A DNA stretch of 64,000 nucleotides from a bacterium. GTDB taxonomy: Bacteria; UBA8248. Positions 7,666 through 52,906 of the stretch are shown in pieces. The position numbers and the translations under genes were made by a program. The notes beneath the pieces are model-generated. The model did no database searches. It was not told the DNA's origin and saw nothing but the letters and a program-made list of their open reading frames with translations. The DNA is taken from positions 1,309 through 65,308 of the forward strand of contig JAJEJD010000012.1 of NCBI GenBank assembly GCA_022828125.1, written 5' to 3'. Each line of letters opens with the position of its first letter. The first letter of the stretch is position 1.

Positions 7666-9890
7666 GCTTTCGCCTCCTGCGCAACCGGGAGCGGGAGTTC
7701 GACGATGAACGTGGCGCCCGCGCCCTCCCTGCTCTCGAAGTGAATGCCGCCGTCGTGCTCGGTGATGATTTGCCGGCTCAACACGAGGCCGAGGCCGGTT
7801 CCGTTCGCCTTCGTCGTGAAAAACGGCGTGAACAAGGAGGCCTGCTCCTCAAGGCTGATGCCCTTGCCGCTGTCCGATATACGGATGGCGAGGTGCTGAT
7901 TCTCCAGTTCGGTTTTCACCAGGAGGCGACCGCCGTCGGGCATTGCGTCGAAACCGTTGGTGATGAGATTCTGAATCGCGACGCGCATTTGCGTTTCATC
8001 CAGGACAACCTCGGGGATATCCCTTTCGAGTTCCTTTTCGATTCGGATTTTCCTGCTCGCCGCCACATCCGCGTGCAGGTCCAGCAAATCCACGAGCATC
8101 TCGTTGCAGTCGATAGGCGTCTTCTCCAGACTGGGCATCCGCACGAATTTGAGATAATCGGCCGTCACCTGGGTGAGGATATCCACCTCCGCCCTCACGG
8201 ATTTGAGCAACGTCCATGCCTCGGCGGTGTCCGACTCCTTGAATTGGGCCAATTCATCGCCGAGCAATTCCGAGTTCAGGTTGATGGCCGAGAGGGGATT
8301 ACGTATGGAATGCGCCACCTGATCGCTCATCTTCCCGACGATCGAGAGCCTGTCGCGCTGGAGAACCTCTTTTTCGAGCGCCTTGCGCTCCGTAACGTCC
8401 TTCAAATACAAAATCACCTGGAGGGTCGCTCCCGAGGCGTCGAGAATCGGATAGGTGTAGTATTCCATATCCATCAGACGCCCATCTTCCCACGAAATCG
8501 ACTTTTCGAAAAAACCCGGCTCGCCGGTCGCGAACGTGTCGACCACGATGGAGCGTTCGACGAATGACTCCGGCACCGGGGTGAGCGGCGATATCTCCCA
8601 TTTCTGATCCAGCAAATCGGACGGTTCGCGCCCGAAGAGCCTGCCCATCGAACGATTGAGCATCCGTATGCGGAAATCCTTGTCCAGAATGCCGATGGCG
8701 TCCGTGATGCCGTCGAACAGCGCCTGAAGCCTTCTGTTGCTCTCCAGCACCTGTTCGGACCAGTGGATTCTATCCTCGGCCCTTATGCGTTTGCGCTCGC
8801 GATCGAGAATCAAAAGAGCCGCCAGAACCAGGGCGATGAACCCGAAACCCGTTAACAGCCAACCTTTTCGGAAAAGCCGTCCAATTAACCCGACGAACTC
8901 GGTGGACGGCGCGGTGAGGGCGAAAGTCCACTTCTCTTTCCCAACGGGAAAGTTGCTGAAAGCCGTCAGGTAACGCATACGTTTTTCTTTTTCCCCGGGT
9001 CTCAAGTCGAGGTGCCAGTCGAAACCATTCACTTCTTTCTTCATGCGCCCGGCGAGTTTTTCCAGTCTCTCATCCCGCAACTCGCGCGCGAGGGTGGACA
9101 ATTGAACCCCTTCCAGCCCGGGGATGCCCGGAGGAAGGATGATTCTGCTCTCACCGTCCACGAGCCACGCCCGCTCTCGACCTCCCGATTGGACGGGCTC
9201 GACGAAGGCGCGCGCCAGATCCGTCATGGAAATTTGCGCGTAGAGCCAGTCGCGCTTTCGCTGCGCCTCCTCCCCCTCGGTCTCAACCCCTCTGGGCGCC
9301 ACGGGCACCGCCGCGAACAAAGAGGAGACCCTTCGAGCCTCGTCGCGAATCACGAGAAGACAGGCGCCCTGCGTCCAGGAGCAGTTCGCCAGTTTTTCGA
9401 GGTATTCCTTGGGAATCGTGGCGATCTGCTGACCCGCTCCCTGCAAGTAGCCCAGTTCGCTCACGCGAAACCTTCCGCCCAGTCTTTCATACAGCCCCAT
9501 CATCACTGCCATTCGTCCGGGATGATCAGGCTCGATGGTGCGAAGAAACCCCGCGCTGTAGCGCAAAGACGCCGTGAGCGCCTCCAGGAACGAGGCGATC
9601 CGGTCGCCGGCCTGCTCCACGAGAAGAAGCTGGCGGCGGTTGGACCTCTCCTCGGCCTCGGCCTTGGTGTCCACGTAGAGACGATAGGAGAGAAAACTCA
9701 ATATCACCATCAAGATGAACGCCGCGCCTATCGTGCAGTACTGGAACTTCCGGTTCGCCCGGCGTGAACGGGCGATGCGCGAACGCGCCGAATCCCCGGT
9801 TTCATGGATCGTATCGTCTCGCGGCGGCGTCCGCCGCCCGAACCATCGCCTCCATATGACTCGAAAGGCTCTCGTCAACGCGTTCGGCAT
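7662..9890 (-). CDS. Sensor histidine kinase (membrane, PAS-containing) paired with the NtrC-type regulator
   Basis: 742 aa. Two hydrophobic segments. PAS-like region. H-box (MSDQVAHSIRNPLSAI). HATPase_c G-boxes (NLITNGFDAM, GTGLGL). 4-bp overlap with the downstream response regulator. Confidence 0.78.
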   Translation of the reverse strand: MPNALTRAFRVIWRRWFGRRTPPRDDTIHETGDSARSRIARSRRANRKFQYCTIGAAFILMVILSFLSYRLYVDTKAEAEERSNRRQLLLVEQAGDRIASFLEALTASLRYSAGFLRTIEPDHPGRMAVMMGLYERLGGRFRVSELGYLQGAGQQIATIPKEYLEKLANCSWTQGACLLVIRDEARRVSSLFAAVPVAPRGVETEGEEAQRKRDWLYAQISMTDLARAFVEPVQSGGRERAWLVDGESRIILPPGIPGLEGVQLSTLARELRDERLEKLAGRMKKEVNGFDWHLDLRPGEKEKRMRYLTAFSNFPVGKEKWTFALTAPSTEFVGLIGRLFRKGWLLTGFGFIALVLAALLILDRERKRIRAEDRIHWSEQVLESNRRLQALFDGITDAIGILDKDFRIRMLNRSMGRLFGREPSDLLDQKWEISPLTPVPESFVERSIVVDTFATGEPGFFEKSISWEDGRLMDMEYYTYPILDASGATLQVILYLKDVTERKALEKEVLQRDRLSIVGKMSDQVAHSIRNPLSAINLNSELLGDELAQFKESDTAEAWTLLKSVRAEVDILTQVTADYLKFVRMPSLEKTPIDCNEMLVDLLDLHADVAASRKIRIEKELERDIPEVVLDETQMRVAIQNLITNGFDAMPDGGRLLVKTELENQHLAIRISDSGKGISLEEQASLFTPFFTTKANGTGLGLVLSRQIITEHDGGIHFESREGAGATFIVELPLPVAQEAKA

Positions 9891-10031
9891 GGACTTACCT
9901 CAAAAAGCGGCCTCTTTCGCTCAGCCCCCGCGCCGGGCCCTAATCTGCCGGTTACTTATTAGGGAAAATCCATTCCCCACCCCGGCGCAGCGCCCTTGAC
10001 ACGGGGAAAATCGCCCCATATCTTGCATAAA

Positions 10032-10058
10032 TTAGCACTCCATACGCCGGAGTGCCAC
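10032..10058 (+). promoter_or_regulatory. CIRCE operator (HrcA binding site) upstream of hrcA
   Basis: TTAGCACTC-N9-GAGTGCCAC, an inverted repeat matching the CIRCE consensus TTAGCACTC-N9-GAGTGCTAA at 16 of 18 positions, about 45 bp before the hrcA ATG. Confidence 0.65.
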
Positions 10059-10102
10059 ACCAAAATTCAGCGTGAAAGACGCCGAACCGGGAGACTCTCG
10101 AA

Positions 10103-11152
10103 ATGGACGCCCTGGAACTCGCCCGGAGAAACCGGGAAATCCTGCGCGCCATCATCAACATTTTCGTGGATACGGGCGAACCCGTGGGGAGCCGCACGCT
10201 CTCGAAACATACGGACATCGCCCTGAGCCCCGCCACCATCCGCAACATCATGAGTGATCTCGCCGATGCGGGCTTCCTCACCAAACCCCACGTCTCCTCC
10301 GGCAGGCTCCCCACCGACCTGGGGTACCGCATTTTCGTCGATGATTTGATGGATTCGCACACCCTCACGAGCGAGGAGCAGGAATCCATGCGACTCGGCG
10401 CCTCCGCGCAGGCCGCGCAAATCGAACAGGTGCTCGCCCAGGCCACGCGCATACTTTCGGAACTCACCAACACCGCCGGTCTCGTGCTGCTGCCCGCAGG
10501 GGAGCAGCTCCACTTCAAGCACATCAACTTCGTGAAGATGTCGGAGGAAAAAACGCTGGCCGTCATCGTCTCCATGAGCGGGGTGGTGCAAAACCGCGTC
10601 ATCCCGACCGAGACCCCCATGAGCCAGGATGAGCTGAACAGGATTTCGAACATGCTGAACGAAGAGTTCAGCGGCCTCGCCCTGAGAGAGGTGCGCGAGA
10701 AGATCGTCCAGAAAATGGCTCACGCGAGGGAGGGCCTCGACACCCTCTACCGCCAGGCCCTGGAACTCAGCAAAGAGGCGCTCACAGAAAGCGAAGAGGC
10801 GCAGGAATCTATTTTCGTCGAGGGGGCCTCGCGCGTGTTCTCACAGCCTGATTTCGCCACTAACGCCGAAAAGCTCCAGTCCCTCTACCGCACGTTCGAG
10901 GAGAGGGAGAAGCTCGTACGCCTGCTGGACAAGTGCCTCGGCTCAGAGGACATCACCATTCTCATCGGTTCGGAGAACGATTTCGAGGAGATGAAGGATT
11001 GCAGCGTCGTCGCCCAGCGCTACTACATGGACGACCGCCCGCTGGGCAGCATCGGCATCATCGGCCCCAAGCGCATGCGCTACGATCGCGCCGTGTCGCT
11101 CGTGGAATGGACGGCGGACTCGGTGTCGAAATTCCTCTCCTCGGGAAAATAA
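10103..11152 (+). CDS. hrcA: Heat-inducible transcription repressor HrcA
   Basis: 349 aa. N-terminal winged helix (ILRAIINIFVDTGEPVGSRTLSK). HrcA-typical length and C-terminal region. Confidence 0.9.
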   Translation: MDALELARRNREILRAIINIFVDTGEPVGSRTLSKHTDIALSPATIRNIMSDLADAGFLTKPHVSSGRLPTDLGYRIFVDDLMDSHTLTSEEQESMRLGASAQAAQIEQVLAQATRILSELTNTAGLVLLPAGEQLHFKHINFVKMSEEKTLAVIVSMSGVVQNRVIPTETPMSQDELNRISNMLNEEFSGLALREVREKIVQKMAHAREGLDTLYRQALELSKEALTESEEAQESIFVEGASRVFSQPDFATNAEKLQSLYRTFEEREKLVRLLDKCLGSEDITILIGSENDFEEMKDCSVVAQRYYMDDRPLGSIGIIGPKRMRYDRAVSLVEWTADSVSKFLSSGK

Positions 11153-26462: not shown

Positions 26463-27212
26463 CTAGTTGGCGATCTTCCACTGCCCGTCGGGCTGCCTGC
26501 AGGCCGTGCCGTAGGCGTTTTGCTTTTTGCCGTCGATGACGATCGTCTGCTGGAACTCCCGGCAGTACTGGTCGAGTTCGTTCTTGAAGGCCGGCCTGGG
26601 AACGACGACGCCGCACACCCGCCTGTCGGGGTTGTCCCAAACGGTGCGCGTGCCGGAGCGCTGGTTCTCGAGCGCGTACTGCGTGGCGCTCGCGAGCCTG
26701 AGCCGCTCGGCCTCGTCCAGGTCGCGCCCGATCTGCCCTCCCACGACGCTGCCGAGAAGCACGCCCGCGAAGGTGGCCAGTCCACGGCCACTTCCCTTGC
26801 CGAGTTGATGGCCGATGACGCCGCCGCCGATCGCGCCGATCACCGAGCCGAGAACCTCGTTGTCGTTGTTCGCGTAATAGACCGCGCAATCATCACCCGT
26901 CGAACGATAGACGTAGCGCTCACGCGGGGAGGACCGATAGATGACGCGCGGGCCGGTCCAGACCGGATAGCCGTACCAGACCGGAGCGACGACGCTGGGG
27001 CCGACCCAAAAGTTATGGCGAATGACGACGCGGGGACGACGATGATGACGCCATTTGCGATGCTGACGCGCTCTGTGGCGCTGGTGCGATTTGTATTTAT
27101 GATGCCGCTTGATTCCGCCGCGCCGGCCTTCGCGCCTGTCCGCTTCCGCAACGCCTGCCAGAAAAACGACCGCCAAAACGCTCAACGCGATGATGACCCC
27201 ATAGCGCTTCAT
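26463..27212 (-). CDS. Secreted/outer-membrane glycine-zipper (17-kDa surface antigen family) protein with a His/Arg-rich N-terminal low-complexity region
   Basis: Signal peptide MKRYGVIIALSVLAVVFLAGVAEA. Glycine zipper GSVIGAIGGGVIGHQLG...GVLLGSVVGGQIG. C-terminal conserved Cys pair. Basic His-rich stretch HHKYKSHQRHRARQHRKWRHHRRPR. Confidence 0.5.
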   Translation of the reverse strand: MKRYGVIIALSVLAVVFLAGVAEADRREGRRGGIKRHHKYKSHQRHRARQHRKWRHHRRPRVVIRHNFWVGPSVVAPVWYGYPVWTGPRVIYRSSPRERYVYRSTGDDCAVYYANNDNEVLGSVIGAIGGGVIGHQLGKGSGRGLATFAGVLLGSVVGGQIGRDLDEAERLRLASATQYALENQRSGTRTVWDNPDRRVCGVVVPRPAFKNELDQYCREFQQTIVIDGKKQNAYGTACRQPDGQWKIAN

Positions 27213-27531
27213 CTGTCCGTCTCCCCTGTAACTTTACCCGTTTGCCGGGAAAAGACGTGAACCAGCGACCTGCCTATTATACTATTCGACGCCGCAGGGT
27301 TCCATCTCATATAACTTATTGATATTTATAAATTTATCTATTTCAAATGCAAAGCGGTTTTTATGCCTAAGCCAAGGGAATACTCATCCGTCCTCTTGAA
27401 AAAATGCGCCCCGCGCGCTCTCATACTTCATCCCAGCCAAGAGAACCCCCGCGAACTTTGAAGATTTCCGCCCTCGCCTGTAGAATCGCCTCCCGCGGAA
27501 TCACACAACTATTCGGGAGGTTTCAGGTTTC

Positions 27532-27987
27532 ATGAGCGAAGGCGTCGCGTTCGAAAAATGGAAAATCGGGAGCAAGTTCACCACCCGGGGCAGGACCATC
27601 ACCGAGACCGACGTGGTGAACTACGTGAACCTCGTGGGCTATACGGAAAGCCTGTTCCTCGACATGGAGTTCTTGCGGGAAAAGGGCCATGAAAGGCGCA
27701 TGGCGCCCGCCCTTTTCACATGCGGCATCGCGGACACGCTCATTGTCCAGACGGGCGTTTTGCATGATTACGCCATCGCGCTCCTGGGCGTGGACGGCCT
27801 CGTGGCGCGCGCGCCGGTCTACGTGGGCGATACGCTCACGGTCGAAGTCGAGACGACCGACGTGCGCGCATCAAAAAGCAGGCCCGATCGCGGCGTCGTC
27901 GCAACGCACCAGAAGGTGCTCAACCAGAACGGCGAGGTGGTGCTCGAATACGACGTGAAGCGCATGCTGCTCAGAAGCGACGCGTAA
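27532..27987 (+). CDS. MaoC-family (R)-specific enoyl-CoA hydratase/dehydratase (single hotdog)
   Basis: 151 aa. Hotdog fold pattern, MaoC-like. Confidence 0.65.
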   Translation: MSEGVAFEKWKIGSKFTTRGRTITETDVVNYVNLVGYTESLFLDMEFLREKGHERRMAPALFTCGIADTLIVQTGVLHDYAIALLGVDGLVARAPVYVGDTLTVEVETTDVRASKSRPDRGVVATHQKVLNQNGEVVLEYDVKRMLLRSDA

Positions 27988-45881: not shown

Positions 45882-46484
45882 CTACGCGGATCTCCAGCGG
45901 TTCAGGACGGCTTCTTTCACCAGACTCCTGAGCCCCGCGGGGTCCACCGGCTTGGGGAAGCAATGCGCCGCGCCCATATCGAGAATGCGCTTGCGCCCTT
46001 CCCCATCGACGCCGCCGAGCGCCACGACGCACGTTTCGCCGCCGGTATCGCTCTGTTTTATCTGGCGGCACACCTCGTAACCATCCACGCTGGAATGATT
46101 CAGGTCGAGTATCACCACGTCCGGATGCGAGGTGGAATAGAGCACGCCGGCCCGGAACCCGTCGTGCGCCACCTGAACCTCATAACCGGGCTCATCGAAC
46201 GAGAGCGCCTCTTTGAGAGAGTCGGCGAGGCCCTGGTCGCCGTTTACGATGAGCACCCGGGGGACACTCCCCTTTTCACGAAAGGGATGGGGGATGTCGC
46301 GTGATTCCAGAAAAGAGAGAAGCGCCTCTTTTCTGACTCTTCGATGACCTCCGGGCGTTCGGTATGCGAGCAGCCAGCCCTTGTCTATCCAGTTTTGAAT
46401 CGTGACCGGCGTGACGTCGCAAATTTCCGCGACTTCGAACGTGGTGAACACTTTTTTTCTGGACAATTTTTCCGCGCTGGACAA
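45882..46484 (-). CDS. Response regulator with an N-terminal excisionase/MerR-type HTH and a C-terminal receiver domain
   Basis: FTTFEVAEICDVTPVTIQNWIDKGWL (Xis-family HTH). Receiver motifs VLIVNGD...VVILDLN...CFPKP. Confidence 0.55.
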   Translation of the reverse strand: MSSAEKLSRKKVFTTFEVAEICDVTPVTIQNWIDKGWLLAYRTPGGHRRVRKEALLSFLESRDIPHPFREKGSVPRVLIVNGDQGLADSLKEALSFDEPGYEVQVAHDGFRAGVLYSTSHPDVVILDLNHSSVDGYEVCRQIKQSDTGGETCVVALGGVDGEGRKRILDMGAAHCFPKPVDPAGLRSLVKEAVLNRWRSA

Positions 46485-46764
46485 TGGCCGCCCCCATTGT
46501 GGCTAAGGATATGGTGCCGCGTTCGCTATATGAATGAGTGGTGCGAAATATTTTGTAATTGATATGTTGCATATTGCTCCCCGTATTTCAACCAAGACCG
46601 GACCATACATGGAATATGATAACGCGGCGCGGGCCGGATGAAGTTCCAGAGCGTTGAATTTCAAGAGACTCGGCGTATATTCTGGAGCCATTGCCGGCGT
46701 GAAGTGGATACGGGAGATGGGTGCAGCCTGGAGATAATGAAATGACCCCGCAGGGTGAGCCAAC

Positions 46765-47214
46765 ATGAGAGCCGTCGTTCAGCGCGTGAGCGAGGCCTGT
46801 GTCCGGGTGGATTCCGAGGCAATCGGTGAAATCCGGGGCGGACTCCTCGTTTTCCTGGGGGTCGGGCGCGAGGATGGAGAAAAAGACGTCGATTTCCTCG
46901 CCGAGAAGATATCGAACCTGAGAATATTCCCCGATGAGGCGCAGAAAATGAACCTCTCGCTTTTGGACGCAGGAGGAGCGATGCTCGTCGTCAGCCAGTT
47001 CACCCTGCACGGCGACTGCCGGAAGGGGAGGCGTCCCGCCTTCATCGCCGCGGCCCCGCCGGAACGGGCGGAGCCTCTCTATGAGCGATTCGTGGCGCAG
47101 GTCGGCAAACTGGGTGTCCCCGTCGCGGCGGGCCGCTTCGGCGCGATGATGGAAGTCGAACTCGTGAACGACGGCCCCGTCACCCTGCTCCTCGACTCGA
47201 AGGGCGCTTTCTAG
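46765..47214 (+). CDS. dtd: D-aminoacyl-tRNA deacylase
   Basis: 149 aa. MRAVVQRV...SQFTL...NDGPVT motifs. Confidence 0.88.
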
Positions 47215-50832: not shown

Positions 50833-50883
50833 GGAGACGGGTGAGGTAATACGCCTCGAAATCACTTCCCCTTAGCGGATCAA

Positions 50884-51249
50884 TTACCCGATCCCGTTTC
50901 CGGTGCGGCGGATGAGCTCTTTCAACGCGGCCATGTTTTCGGCATGTTGCCTTTCCATAGCCGCCATCGTCTTTTCGTGAGCCGCCATCGTTTCCGCGTG
51001 AGACGCCATGGTTTCTTCGTGAGTCGCCATGGTTTCCGTGTGAGTCGCCATCGTTTCGGCGCGCCGTGATTTCATGCCCGCCATCCTCGCCTCGCGTAAC
51101 TTCTCATACTCGCGCGAGTCCTCCCGCATCTGCCGGAGTCCGCTGAAGATCAGCAGGCATTGCGCGCCGCCGACGGCGAGCTCCACGACGGGACCGGCGG
51201 CCGTGGCCAGCAACATGTAGAACTGGTAATCCGTCATCTCTCGCCCCAT
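50884..51249 (-). CDS. Small membrane-anchored protein with five 7-aa tandem repeats (ETMA[TSA]H[TEAK])
   Basis: N-terminal TM helix YQFYMLLATAAGPVVELAVGGAQCLLIF. 21-bp tandem DNA repeats around 50958-51062. GC-rich like the host genome. Confidence 0.35.
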   Translation of the reverse strand: MGREMTDYQFYMLLATAAGPVVELAVGGAQCLLIFSGLRQMREDSREYEKLREARMAGMKSRRAETMATHTETMATHEETMASHAETMAAHEKTMAAMERQHAENMAALKELIRRTGNGIG

Positions 51250-51625
51250 CTCTTGGAATGAAGTCAGAATGAAGATTCAGATGGGTCGTTGAAGTCCTCG
51301 CGGACAGCCACGATACCATGTCCCCGCGCGCGCCGCCAAATCGCCGGGAACGCCCGGAGGAATCCTGTCTTGGCGGATGGAAGAGCGTCTCCCATCGAAA
51401 ACGCGCGGCCCGCCACTCCGCCTCACCCTGAGTAGCGGCGAAGCCGCGTATCGAAGGTCAAACGCGATTGATGAATGAGCGTTTGCAAATTGTTTTTCCC
51501 TCACCTGCAACCGCTCTTGATGCGCCCCGGCGAACCCTCCGCCATCGGGCTTTTTCAACAAACCTCTTAAAGGGGGAGGGAAAACTTTCTTAATCGCATC
51601 CTACGGCTTCAAGGGTTTCTAAGCG

Positions 51626-52801
51626 TTAGCGCTCAATCAGCTTCAACTGAGAACCGAATTTTACGCCTGCGACTTCGCAAGCGGTTTCGATTTTTTTCTT
51701 GATGTTCCTTGTGCTGAGATGGTGCCCTACCCACCATCCATTCCCTAAGTCCAAAGATGATCGCTCCACGAACTTGGGGTCGTCATAAAGGTCATTGCGG
51801 TCTCTTGCCACTAACCTCCGTTTCCTTCCTACTGTTTCCTTCGCAAGGCGGTCCATGAAGCCGGGATCACGGTCTTGTAACTTTTTTAATATTTCAGCCA
51901 GTGTTTCTCTCGCAGAGCTGGTATTAACAGATTCTTTTTCAAGGGAAAAACCAACAAGTTTGGATTTCTTGCCGACCGCTGATTGTGATGGGATGGAGGC
52001 TGATTTCTTCGATTGGGATGGTGAGGGAGTAGTTGATCTCCTCGACTTCGAACGGGAGGGTGCAGACATGGTATTGAAACGTAGATCCCTCAAAAACGAA
52101 TCCACCTCTTCTCGGGTATCAGCTAAGTTCGGTTTCGGCTTATGTTCGTTTTCAAACTTACTTCTCACTTCTCGCACCAGAAGATCCCTAAGAGCTTGGT
52201 TAGGAGTATCTAGCAGCTCTCGCCAGACGTCTGGAATCGCGTTGCCTATTTTCTTTTTCTCCAACTTCTTTTCGTAGACATCCTCTGCGACCTTCAAACT
52301 CTTGTAATTGATGACACGGTTTCTATCGAGGTATCTTTTAAAATCCGAGGCGTGCCCGGAAATCTCATCCTCACTCGTCAATTCCATCCGATGGAACAAC
52401 ATCTCATCAAAGGCCTCTTCATCCAGCCTAGCGAGATAAAAATCCCAGCGTCTACCGTCCGTGAGAATGAGAAACCTTGGTCTCCTATCGGCACGATAAT
52501 AGTTAAATAGCTGCTCCCTATCATCTTTGTCCCCAGGTTTTTTGGGTTCTTTTATGCCACCGATCTTTTTGGCTTCTATGAAAACTATCGGCGCATTTTT
52601 CCTGAGTAGCGCGTAGTCTGCCGAACCGTCTTTACCTTTTTCGACCTCAAATTCCGTCCTTACTTTTTCTGGATCTTGAACATCCCAACCCAACGCTTTC
52701 AGGATTGGATTGATAACTGTATCCCTGACTTGCATCTCTTTTCTAAGCAAGTCAGAATGGATATTCTTAATCGCTATTTTCAAAACTTCTTCCAGACTCA
52801 T
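51626..52801 (-). CDS. PD-(D/E)xK nuclease-domain protein (Mrr / type I HsdR N-terminal-like) with a Ser/Lys-rich linker and an unassigned C-terminal domain. Encoded on a low-GC island.
   Basis: N-terminal GSADYALL...IVFIEAKK (D-x(n)-E-x-K) restriction-endonuclease fold pattern. Gene GC ~42% versus ~65% for its neighbours. GGAGG RBS upstream. Confidence 0.5.
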   Translation of the reverse strand: MSLEEVLKIAIKNIHSDLLRKEMQVRDTVINPILKALGWDVQDPEKVRTEFEVEKGKDGSADYALLRKNAPIVFIEAKKIGGIKEPKKPGDKDDREQLFNYYRADRRPRFLILTDGRRWDFYLARLDEEAFDEMLFHRMELTSEDEISGHASDFKRYLDRNRVINYKSLKVAEDVYEKKLEKKKIGNAIPDVWRELLDTPNQALRDLLVREVRSKFENEHKPKPNLADTREEVDSFLRDLRFNTMSAPSRSKSRRSTTPSPSQSKKSASIPSQSAVGKKSKLVGFSLEKESVNTSSARETLAEILKKLQDRDPGFMDRLAKETVGRKRRLVARDRNDLYDDPKFVERSSLDLGNGWWVGHHLSTRNIKKKIETACEVAGVKFGSQLKLIER

Positions 52802-52837
52802 TCTTTAAGATACCTCCTCAACAAAATAATCGTGTTT

Positions 52838-52874
52838 GCCTCAATAAAAGTAAGGGACGCATAATATGCGTCCC
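52838..52874 (-). terminator. Rho-independent terminator downstream of acs
   Basis: Perfect hairpin GGGACGCAT-aat-ATGCGTCCC, followed on the minus strand by TTACTTTTATTGA. Confidence 0.6.
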
Positions 52875-52906
52875 CTACAAATGTTGCTCTATTTAGCTCG
52901 CCTGTC

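Follow-up and report, generated by a model that had tools for sequence, protein, structure and literature searches.

Between the recN and acs genes of the window, by which we mean the whole stretch of 64,000 nucleotides analyzed here (contig JAJEJD010000012.1 of assembly GCA_022828125.1), lies an AT-rich cassette carrying a gene for a 391-amino-acid (aa) protein, in which a predicted nuclease is joined through a flexible linker to a domain resembling the DNA-binding domain of SeqA. This nuclease-reader gene and the slot that holds it are the subject of this study. The locus comprises the following features.

50833..52906, no strand assigned: variable recN-acs slot, running from the recN stop to the acs stop (convergent gene ends), delimited by comparison with relatives
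~51384..52850, no strand assigned: inserted AT-rich cassette of ~1.47 kb, delimited by alignment against the empty slot of the relative L083
51626..52801, minus strand: nuclease-reader gene, 391 aa, ATG start, stop codon within the end coordinate, taken from the list of open reading frames (ORFs)
52802..52849, minus strand: short upstream region, presumed to hold the gene's own promoter, with a Shine-Dalgarno sequence
52850..52878, minus strand: terminator-like hairpin of acs and right boundary of the cassette, from a terminator scan and inverted repeat I4

The first-pass annotation had described this region as an AT-rich island encoding a 391-aa protein, and this held: ORF 51626..52801 lies on the minus strand in the 1,320-bp stretch of lowest GC content in the window (z = -8.2 when compared with every non-overlapping position). 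The low GC content itself also stood, although the figure turned out slightly higher than the ~42% first given, namely, 44.9% for positions 51560-52880 and 45.3% for the gene, with local minima of 39 to 41%. Mean GC is 62.7% for the window and 61 to 65% for the flanking genes, for which ~65% had been stated, and GC at third codon positions (GC3) is 0.485 in the nuclease gene versus 0.77 to 0.91 in acs, recN, and thiG. Two lesser GC dips (~0.49 to 0.53) occur elsewhere in the window. The one at 27000-27700 takes in the 5' end of an ORF for a His/Arg-rich 249-aa product whose N terminus is hydrophobic (26463-27212, minus strand), along with the sequence upstream of it, and the one at 46200-46800 corresponds to the spacer between two divergent genes, one for a D-Tyr-tRNA deacylase and the other for a MerR/response regulator.

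In the public record of the identical protein (P0001, 369 aa), translation starts at Met23, 22 codons too late; the stretch at issue is 52735-52801. We place the true start at 52801, since the Shine-Dalgarno sequence GAGGAGG is found at 52813-52819 and residues 1 to 22 are conserved in homologues. It is misleading that the current public annotation reads either "type I restriction endonuclease" or "hypothetical protein." The promoter presumed to lie in 52802-52849 gave no match to the sigma-70 consensus, and an Rfam scan found no RNA element within the slot.

The 391-aa ORF contains the motifs GSADYALL, VFIEAKK, and LGNGWWVGHHLSTRNIKKKIE. Along the protein, we distinguished the following parts, all encoded on the minus strand.

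52412..52801, minus strand: PD-(D/E)xK nuclease core of the HSDR_N type, residues 1-130 (Pfam PF04313)
52568..52618, minus strand: catalytic residues D62...E76-A-K78 (conservation in 65 sequences)
52499-52513, minus strand: Q97xxxY101 (conservation in 65 sequences)
52064..52411, minus strand: helical spacer domain, residues 131-246 (helices 144-245 of the AlphaFold2 model; Foldseek span)
51959..52063, minus strand: Ser/Pro/Lys-rich linker predicted to be disordered, residues 247-281, which is also the recombination joint (per-residue model confidence [pLDDT]; DNA identity breakpoints)
51629..51958, minus strand: SeqA-C-like putative DNA-reader domain, residues 282-391 (model, Foldseek, hhalign, Pfam)
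51704..51742, minus strand: invariant NGWW and hypervariable loop (GHHLST here), residues 354-366 (hhalign register, column composition)

The HsdR-N-type nuclease core that had been read from the N terminus was confirmed by Pfam, where HSDR_N (PF04313) matched at 47.4 bits against a gathering cutoff of 25.1 (E = 2.7e-12). Among 65 family members, PF04313 was matched by 64 and HSDR_N_2 (PF13588) by 56; the MmeI_N match was weak, 18 bits, under its 27-bit cutoff. In the alignment of these 65 diverse homologues, D62 (64/65), E76 (63/65), K78 (64/65), Q97 (65/65), and Y101 (63/65) are almost invariant, and we take them to be the D...ExK and QxxxY motifs of type I/RecB-like nucleases. AlphaFold2, run with the 65-homologue alignment, produced a model with a mean pLDDT of 88.9, the nuclease core exceeding 90, laid out as nuclease core, helical region (131-246), disordered linker (247-276), and compact C-terminal domain (282-391). 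Searching the PDB with Foldseek, we found that the nuclease half matched DrdV (7lo5) and BpuSI (3s1s), the four best chains at E = 1.7e-3 to 5.7e-3 over 256 to 286 columns and a fifth (DrdV 7lo5_C) at 3.3e-2 over 289 columns, with RecU, EndoMS, and NucS lower in the list. The alignments to DrdV and BpuSI take in both the nuclease and the helical region, and as modeled, residues 131 to 246 resemble the connector behind the nuclease of type IIG enzymes. The family profile, compared with the PDB, matched the nuclease domain of HsdR (3h1t) at E = 4.3e-5. Profiles and model thus agree in assigning the N terminus to the HSDR_N-type PD-(D/E)xK nucleases, with the catalytic set intact. The Mrr-like character that had also been proposed was not borne out: Mrr_cat gave no match at E <= 1 when the protein was scanned with Pfam and does not figure in the top families for the 65 members, and the fold is nearest to the nuclease heads of type IIG/type I enzymes. 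Pfam and NCBIfam scans of the 391-aa protein found no helicase/ATPase family, and no methyltransferase or target-recognition domain was detected in it, the C-terminal end being occupied by the SeqA-like domain. Single-sequence searches of the PDB and NCBIfam returned noise only (a flavin adenine dinucleotide monooxygenase at E = 0.6; SdpC; arcadin) and were discarded.

The linker, noted at first as Ser/Lys-rich, is indeed rich in Ser, Lys, and Pro; residues 247 to 276 are predicted to be disordered (pLDDT < 50), and both its length and its sequence differ across the family. The domain that follows had been taken for a novel one. Modeled alone, it reached a pLDDT of 94.3 and a predicted template modeling (TM) score of 0.87, and Foldseek matched it in the PDB only to SeqA C-terminal domains of E. 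coli and Vibrio (1lrr, 3fmt, 1iu3, and 3sk7), over 88 to 89 columns with a root mean square deviation of 1.8 to 2.3 Å, TM scores of 0.60 to 0.66, and a probability of 1.0, all other matches being noise. Aligned by hhalign with E. coli SeqA (E = 8e-4), residues 285 to 372 of the family fall onto SeqA 75 to 161, pairing GRKRRLVA with GRTRVYFA and NGWWVGHHLST with GTPYWVITNTNT, so that the loop after NGWW is in register with the SeqA DNA-binding loop T149-N150-T151-N152. The Pfam SeqA family (PF03925) was matched by 17 of the 65 members, the best at E = 6.9e-5 and all under the gathering score of 25.5 bits, so that, by the rule Pfam itself applies, the homology is distant and does not amount to membership of the family. 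The fold, profile, and Pfam comparisons thus agree in identifying the C-terminal domain as a homologue of the SeqA C-terminal domain, shared with more than 150 full-length relatives and ~1,200 cluster representatives. The SeqA_N oligomerization domain had no match in the protein, residues 1 to 246 consisting of the nuclease and the helical spacer.

The DNA-binding domain of E. coli SeqA reads hemimethylated GATC. Two residues of SeqA, N150 and N152, sit in its DNA-binding loop (PMC2691817), and the SeqA domain has been treated as a reader of hemimethylated N6-methyladenine (m6A) (Iyer, Zhang & Aravind 2016, PMC4738411). The residues aligned to N150 and N152 are H361 and S363 in the window protein; across the family, N361 occurs in 39/65 and S363 in 50/65 sequences.

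We then compared the slot with that of related genomes. Against 12 relatives, DNA similarity (75 to 95%) ends at 52906/7, the acs stop, and restarts at ~50832, the recN stop. The relatives' Acs, ThiG, and RecN are 90 to 99%, 91 to 100%, and 73 to 90% identical, respectively, to the window proteins, and their slot nuclease alleles are only 34 to 55% identical to that of the window. Pairwise identities of the slot gene are uncorrelated with those of the flanks (r = 0.06 and 0.13), whereas those of Acs and RecN correlate with each other (r = 0.94). Because the nuclease gene itself had served as the query for the first 12 syntenic loci, we resampled the lineage via RecN to remove this bias. The idea that the slot is always occupied, drawn from the first 12 loci, was refuted by the RecN-based sampling. 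L081 carries the nuclease in the slot. In L082 and L083 the slot is empty, its GC is host-like, and it keeps no remnant of the gene, and L084 has a PALP-family enzyme there instead (9099-10307); presence and absence thus vary from relative to relative. In total, we count at least 14 genomes in the lineage whose recN-acs slot is occupied by this family. The outgroup Nitrospinota L085 (8946-10723) and L086 (8764-10571) keep the recN-acs junction with other cargo, either an aminotransferase or a MOSC protein and a Kelch beta-propeller protein. As the slot can be empty or alternatively filled, the recN-acs junction is an old hotspot, receiving insertions throughout the phylum, and the nuclease is accessory.

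In the alignment with the empty slot of L083, homology stops at ~51383 and restarts at ~52850, at the acs terminator hairpin, whose 13-bp stem is followed by a T run and which is kept in L081 and L083. The same alignment showed no target-site duplication at the cassette ends, neither a tRNA nor an integrase was found at the cassette, and the slot cassettes of relatives differ in extent. The slot of the window also holds a 121-aa ORF (50884-51249, minus strand) with an N-terminal hydrophobic helix and no Pfam family, in which a 21-bp tandem repeat at 50959-51061 encodes ETMA(T/S/A)H heptads. Homologues of this ORF, which carry the gene-caller Pfam mark "CCDC90-like," are present in the slots of relatives, including nuclease-free ones, and are duplicated in L002 and L082.

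The nuclease gene proved to be a mosaic. Compared with L003, DNA identity is ~50% over codons 1 to 240 and 93 to 98% over codons 271 to 330, rising sharply from ~50 to 60% to 93 to 98% across the linker, and the pattern is reversed for L002, with 78 to 80% at the 5' end and 44 to 57% in most of the reader half, similarity ending at ~52090. The breakpoints lie in the disordered linker, and the two halves recombine there. Among 64 homologues, identity to the window protein in the N-terminal part does not correlate with that in the C-terminal part (r = 0.10), and the closest neighbors, some of them from other phyla, are not the same for the two halves. In some pairs, synonymous divergence (dS) in one half equals that of the flanks while the other half is saturated, and descent has therefore been vertical, punctuated by module replacement. 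This bears on the recent horizontal acquisition suggested earlier: a foreign accessory cassette stands, but a single recent arrival does not, given that at least 14 genomes have the family in the slot and that some gene halves are long-resident, their dS being equal to that of the flanks, while other halves were replaced by recombination. Foreign composition is a feature of the family, as the GC of the gene is below that of its flanks in 77/80 loci (mean, -8.9 points; extreme, -22.6 points). Within the slot, the gene can be repeated in tandem, in full or in part (three copies in L027), and such tandem copies are also found in other phyla (L048, L035, L047, and L058); the copy number in one slot ranges from zero to three.

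The ratio of nonsynonymous to synonymous divergence (dN/dS) is 0.09 to 0.29 in the nuclease half, 0.24 to 0.44 in the reader half, and 0.05 to 0.17 in Acs and RecN. For the nuclease half, the value is ~0.1 in pairs with an orthologous N half and rises to 0.29 against L002. All values are below 1, showing that purifying selection acts throughout; pairs with L065, a frameshifted locus, were discarded as invalid. The reader half carries a reading loop that is hypervariable on an invariant scaffold: 61 six-residue variants follow NGWW in 83 alleles, 11 of them occur within 13 genomes with near-identical flanks, and tandem copies in one genome carry different loops. Such a diversification pattern fits that typical of conflict genes.

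The family is large and widespread. More than 150 full-length homologues of 340 to 410 aa were found, and a scan of one genome per species gave 227 relatives, of which the best 78 loci are all in metagenome-assembled genomes (MAGs). The taxa of these 78 loci are Nitrospinota-labeled or unclassified bacteria, Latescibacterota, Gemmatimonadota, Alpha- and Gammaproteobacteria, Binatia, Dehalococcoidia, Acidobacteriota, Acidimicrobiia, Nitrospirota, Spirochaetia, Rhodothermales, and Thermodesulfobacteriota. Overall, full-length relatives occur in at least 12 phyla, all in uncultured MAGs. A profile of the C-terminal module alone retrieved 1,224 cluster representatives (564 at E <= 1e-10). The module stands behind HSDR_N in one, two, or five copies (five in P0121, 874 aa) and is also joined to HTH_17, HARE-HTH, or Mrr_N, combinations that mark it as a portable DNA-binding module in restriction-type company. 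In P0121, P0122, P0123, P0138, and P0160, two to five tandem SeqA-like modules follow one HSDR_N nuclease, which recalls the need of SeqA for simultaneous binding of several sites.

The names of many carrier MAGs hint at marine sponges. The APA_bin series comes from the sponge Aplysina aerophoba (PMC11706023), SB066x bins are among sponge-symbiont (Entoporibacteria) genomes (PMC7883664), with one of them tied to the sponge Ircinia ramosa (PMC11706023), and Poriferihabitaceae and Nitrospinota MAGs were obtained in a sponge genome project (PMC12859430). For the remaining carriers, a sponge origin is suggested by the names alone, a literature search by MAG accession having given no confirmation of the host.

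We also examined the genomic context of the family. That no methyltransferase, specificity subunit, or ATPase partner is nearby, as had been stated, was confirmed: no DNA methyltransferase, specificity subunit, or ATPase is found within +/-10 kb of the gene, and all-against-all clustering of the neighbors revealed no recurrent partner gene in 80 loci. What clustered was the synteny of the lineage itself, housekeeping families of a generic kind, and further copies of the nuclease-reader gene. The sole methyltransferase-fold neighbor in the window is a UbiE-type small-molecule enzyme ~7 kb away, which is part of the conserved core synteny. In the 3.9-Mb genome of L002, a second paralogue (P0014) is surrounded by what looks like a defense island (L087, 86-9592). 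This island contains a Trypsin_2 protease and a TIR_2 protein, an N6_N4 methyltransferase and a BglII-family endonuclease, a Transposase_mut fragment, and DUF3800. L087 is thus the exception to the absence of methyltransferases, since a type II restriction-modification (R-M) pair adjoins P0014.

Site avoidance was considered as a clue to specificity. The observed/expected ratios in the window are 0.59 for GATC, 0.54 for GTAC, and 0.32 for CTAG. Over 77 carrier loci, the GATC ratio is 0.55 to 0.59 in two groups and ~1.0 in most others: depletion is seen in the lineage of the window (0.59), in Dehalococcoidia (0.55), and in one Thermodesulfobacteriota locus (0.10), and is absent from most other carriers. 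The depletion being lineage-specific, GATC avoidance was rejected as a specificity clue.

We next compared the protein with known systems. Like the type IIG enzymes of the MmeI family (DrdV, BpuSI) and like HsdR, it has an N-terminal nuclease followed by a helical connector, alignable over ~260 to 290 columns, with matches to HSDR_N, HSDR_N_2, and MmeI_N and with the D...ExK and QxxxY motifs. Unlike type IIG enzymes, however, it has no N6-adenine methyltransferase or target-recognition domain, and unlike type I HsdR, it has neither a superfamily 2 helicase motor nor an HsdM/HsdS partner; DNA recognition appears to be left to the SeqA-like module. With SeqA, it shares the C-terminal fold and detectable homology, including a GRxR...A segment and an aromatic-W-hydrophobic-x-T-N loop. 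It differs from this origin-sequestration protein of E. coli and Vibrio in having a nuclease in place of the N-terminal oligomerization domain and in its hypervariable loop, with HH-L-S where SeqA has N-T-N; moreover, the window gene is accessory and horizontally exchanged, whereas seqA is a core replication gene. To our knowledge, SeqA is not known in some of the phyla that carry the nuclease-reader family. The protein is thus a member of the HSDR_N superfamily and is not a type I HsdR, a type IIG enzyme, Mrr, or SeqA.

The closest systems are type IV reader-nuclease fusions, namely, PD-(D/E)XK-winged-helix proteins of the DpnI kind (FcyTI, Psp4BI) and other winged-helix fusions sensing Gm6ATC (Helbrecht et al. 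2024, PMC11037411), together with the PUA/SRA/EVE-nuclease fusions (Lutz et al. 2019, PMC6765204). In these fusions, as in the window protein, one polypeptide combines a PD-(D/E)xK nuclease with a separate DNA-reader domain, and the gene stands alone, sometimes within a defense island, and has no cognate methyltransferase in its vicinity (PMC11037411, PMC6765204). The logic would also be shared, with the reader picking marked DNA and the nuclease cutting close by. The window protein is unlike them in its SeqA-type reader, a fold unrelated to the winged helix or PUA, in its HSDR_N/MmeI_N-type nuclease with a helical spacer, and in the C-terminal placement of the reader behind a long disordered linker whose length varies. 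The range of m6A readers known to act on DNA is described as limited (PMC11037411), and a SeqA-type reader is not among the known or proposed ones in that survey or in PMC6765204. The RAMA-SeqA fusions found in R-M contexts (PMC4738411) likewise use the SeqA domain as a portable reader in restriction-related proteins, but the fusion there is to RAMA and not to an HSDR_N nuclease, and the window family, its hypervariable loop, and its slot dynamics are not described in that work.

In view of the intact catalytic site, the homology of the reader to a known methyl-DNA reader, the lack of a partner gene both here and as a recurrent neighbor, the conflict-type diversification, and the paralogue in a defense island, we propose that the protein is a solitary type IV-like, that is, modification-dependent, reader-nuclease fusion, a reading to which we give about an even chance. 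The SeqA-like module would dock on a short DNA site, the identity and probably the methylation state of which would be read by the loop after the invariant NGWW, and the tethered nuclease would cut near the docking site, probably only after two molecules have met, as each chain has a single active site. A cognate methyltransferase would be unneeded, since host DNA would lack the mark or the site. Targets may be diversified by hypervariability of the loop, swapping of halves at the linker, and tandem duplication, and alleles may be traded among co-resident bacteria of many phyla.

Several points weigh against this proposal. The function of every family member is predicted from sequence. The Asn pair of the SeqA loop is not conserved, with H361/S363 in the window protein and a family consensus of N361/S363, and methyl dependence is for this reason an extrapolation from fold and homology. 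SeqA prefers hemimethylated DNA, and a nuclease with this preference would endanger a host using the same methylase. A recognizable defense island was found in one of five Pfam-annotated contexts, the others being housekeeping. A search with PADLOC-DB v2 found no model of a defense system; it did give matches, but weak and N-terminal ones (residues 18 to 146) to type IIG/type I restriction endonuclease models, the best at E = 1.1e-4 and 18 bits. Full-length relatives are absent from 50,697 phage records, 72,556 plasmids, and IMG/VR, so that a vehicle for the spread was not found there, and no viral protein with the fold was found in our searches. Finally, the family gene is cut into two or three pieces by stops or frameshifts in L016, L031, L045, L065, and L073. 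These split copies (gene at ~10001-11100 in each of the five loci) are either pseudogenes or long-read assembly errors.

An extension of the proposal, which we put forward as speculative and rather unlikely, is that the family constitutes an innate, diversifying nuclease repertoire sensing methylation or hemimethylation, in which different loops read different sites and sponge co-residents of unrelated phyla trade halves at the linker and at fixed slots. Foreign DNA, whether incoming or replicating, would then be recognized by a wrong methylation pattern on one or both strands.

Of the alternatives, the one that survives best, though we still judge it improbable, is a sequence-specific, modification-independent nuclease, either a selfish or homing-type element or a toxin, with the SeqA-like domain acting as a plain sequence-specific binder. 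Such a gene would persist by cutting empty or variant sites or by addiction. The presence/absence polymorphism of the slot, the allele replacement, and the tandem and partial copies would be expected of it, as would a solitary, AT-rich gene inserted beside a terminator between convergent genes and a reader loop that, in the window, lacks the SeqA Asn pair. However, the loci contain neither an immunity or antitoxin gene nor a recurrent neighbor, and no target-site duplication, integrase, or intron/intein context was seen. The empty sites are unlike a conserved homing site, because the slot cassettes differ in extent. Moreover, an unprotected cutter needs its own genome to be free of sites, which is hard to square with a distribution over at least 12 phyla and a wide GC range.

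It is quite unlikely that the protein is instead the effector of a multigene system with distant partners, for instance, an orphan subunit serving a type I/IIG-like methylase/specificity complex. The similarity to HSDR_N and MmeI_N would suit such a role, one source does label a homologue "type I restriction endonuclease," and our view of the genome spans 64 kb. Yet the protein has 391 aa and no helicase/ATPase motor, no hsdM, hsdS, or other partner lies within +/-10 kb or recurs in the 80 loci from at least 12 phyla, and a specificity subunit would be unneeded because the protein carries its own DNA-recognition module.

Even less probable is a housekeeping factor acting on hemimethylated new DNA, be it a MutH-like strand-discrimination nickase or a SeqA-like replication/segregation factor to which a nuclease has been added. 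The homology to SeqA, the natural substrate of which is newly replicated DNA, the position adjoining recN in at least 14 genomes of one lineage, and the purifying selection are consistent with it. A housekeeping gene would nevertheless hardly be missing from the close relatives L082 and L083 and replaced by an unrelated gene in L084, nor would it show extreme allelic divergence uncoupled from the flanks, zero to three copies per slot, some of them frameshifted, and foreign composition in 77/80 loci. In addition, its neighbors in other phyla are unrelated to repair, and the N-terminal oligomerization domain of SeqA is absent. Most doubtful of all is a noncutting DNA binder, either a regulator or a nucleoid-associated protein, in which a degenerate nuclease fold would serve as a second DNA-binding or dimerization domain: related architectures do join the reader to pure DNA-binding domains (HTH_17, HARE-HTH, and Mrr_N), and some PD-(D/E)xK fusions are reported to restrict phage with little detectable nuclease activity in vitro (PMC6765204), but the full D...ExK and QxxxY set is kept in 63 to 65 of the 65 sequences, and the strongest purifying selection falls on the nuclease half.

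Taken together, the nuclease-reader gene represents an uncharacterized, fast-diversifying family of probable anti-foreign-DNA nucleases across many bacterial phyla. With ~1,200 module clusters, the combination of a SeqA-type reader and a nuclease points to a whole class of candidate enzymes. The family is also a natural example of the diversification of defense-type genes, combining an invariant scaffold, a hypervariable loop, swapping of halves, tandem arrays, and turnover of the slot, the latter occurring in genomes whose flanking genes are 90 to 99% identical. Found in at least 12 phyla, with many carriers apparently sponge derived, it may be a marker of gene flow in a host-associated community. 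Were the reading of the family as an innate, diversifying repertoire to prove true, unlikely as we hold it to be, SeqA-type domains would be a third major class of methyl-DNA reader in restriction, beside winged-helix and PUA/SRA domains, and the family would be a source of new methylation-specific nucleases with evolvable specificity.

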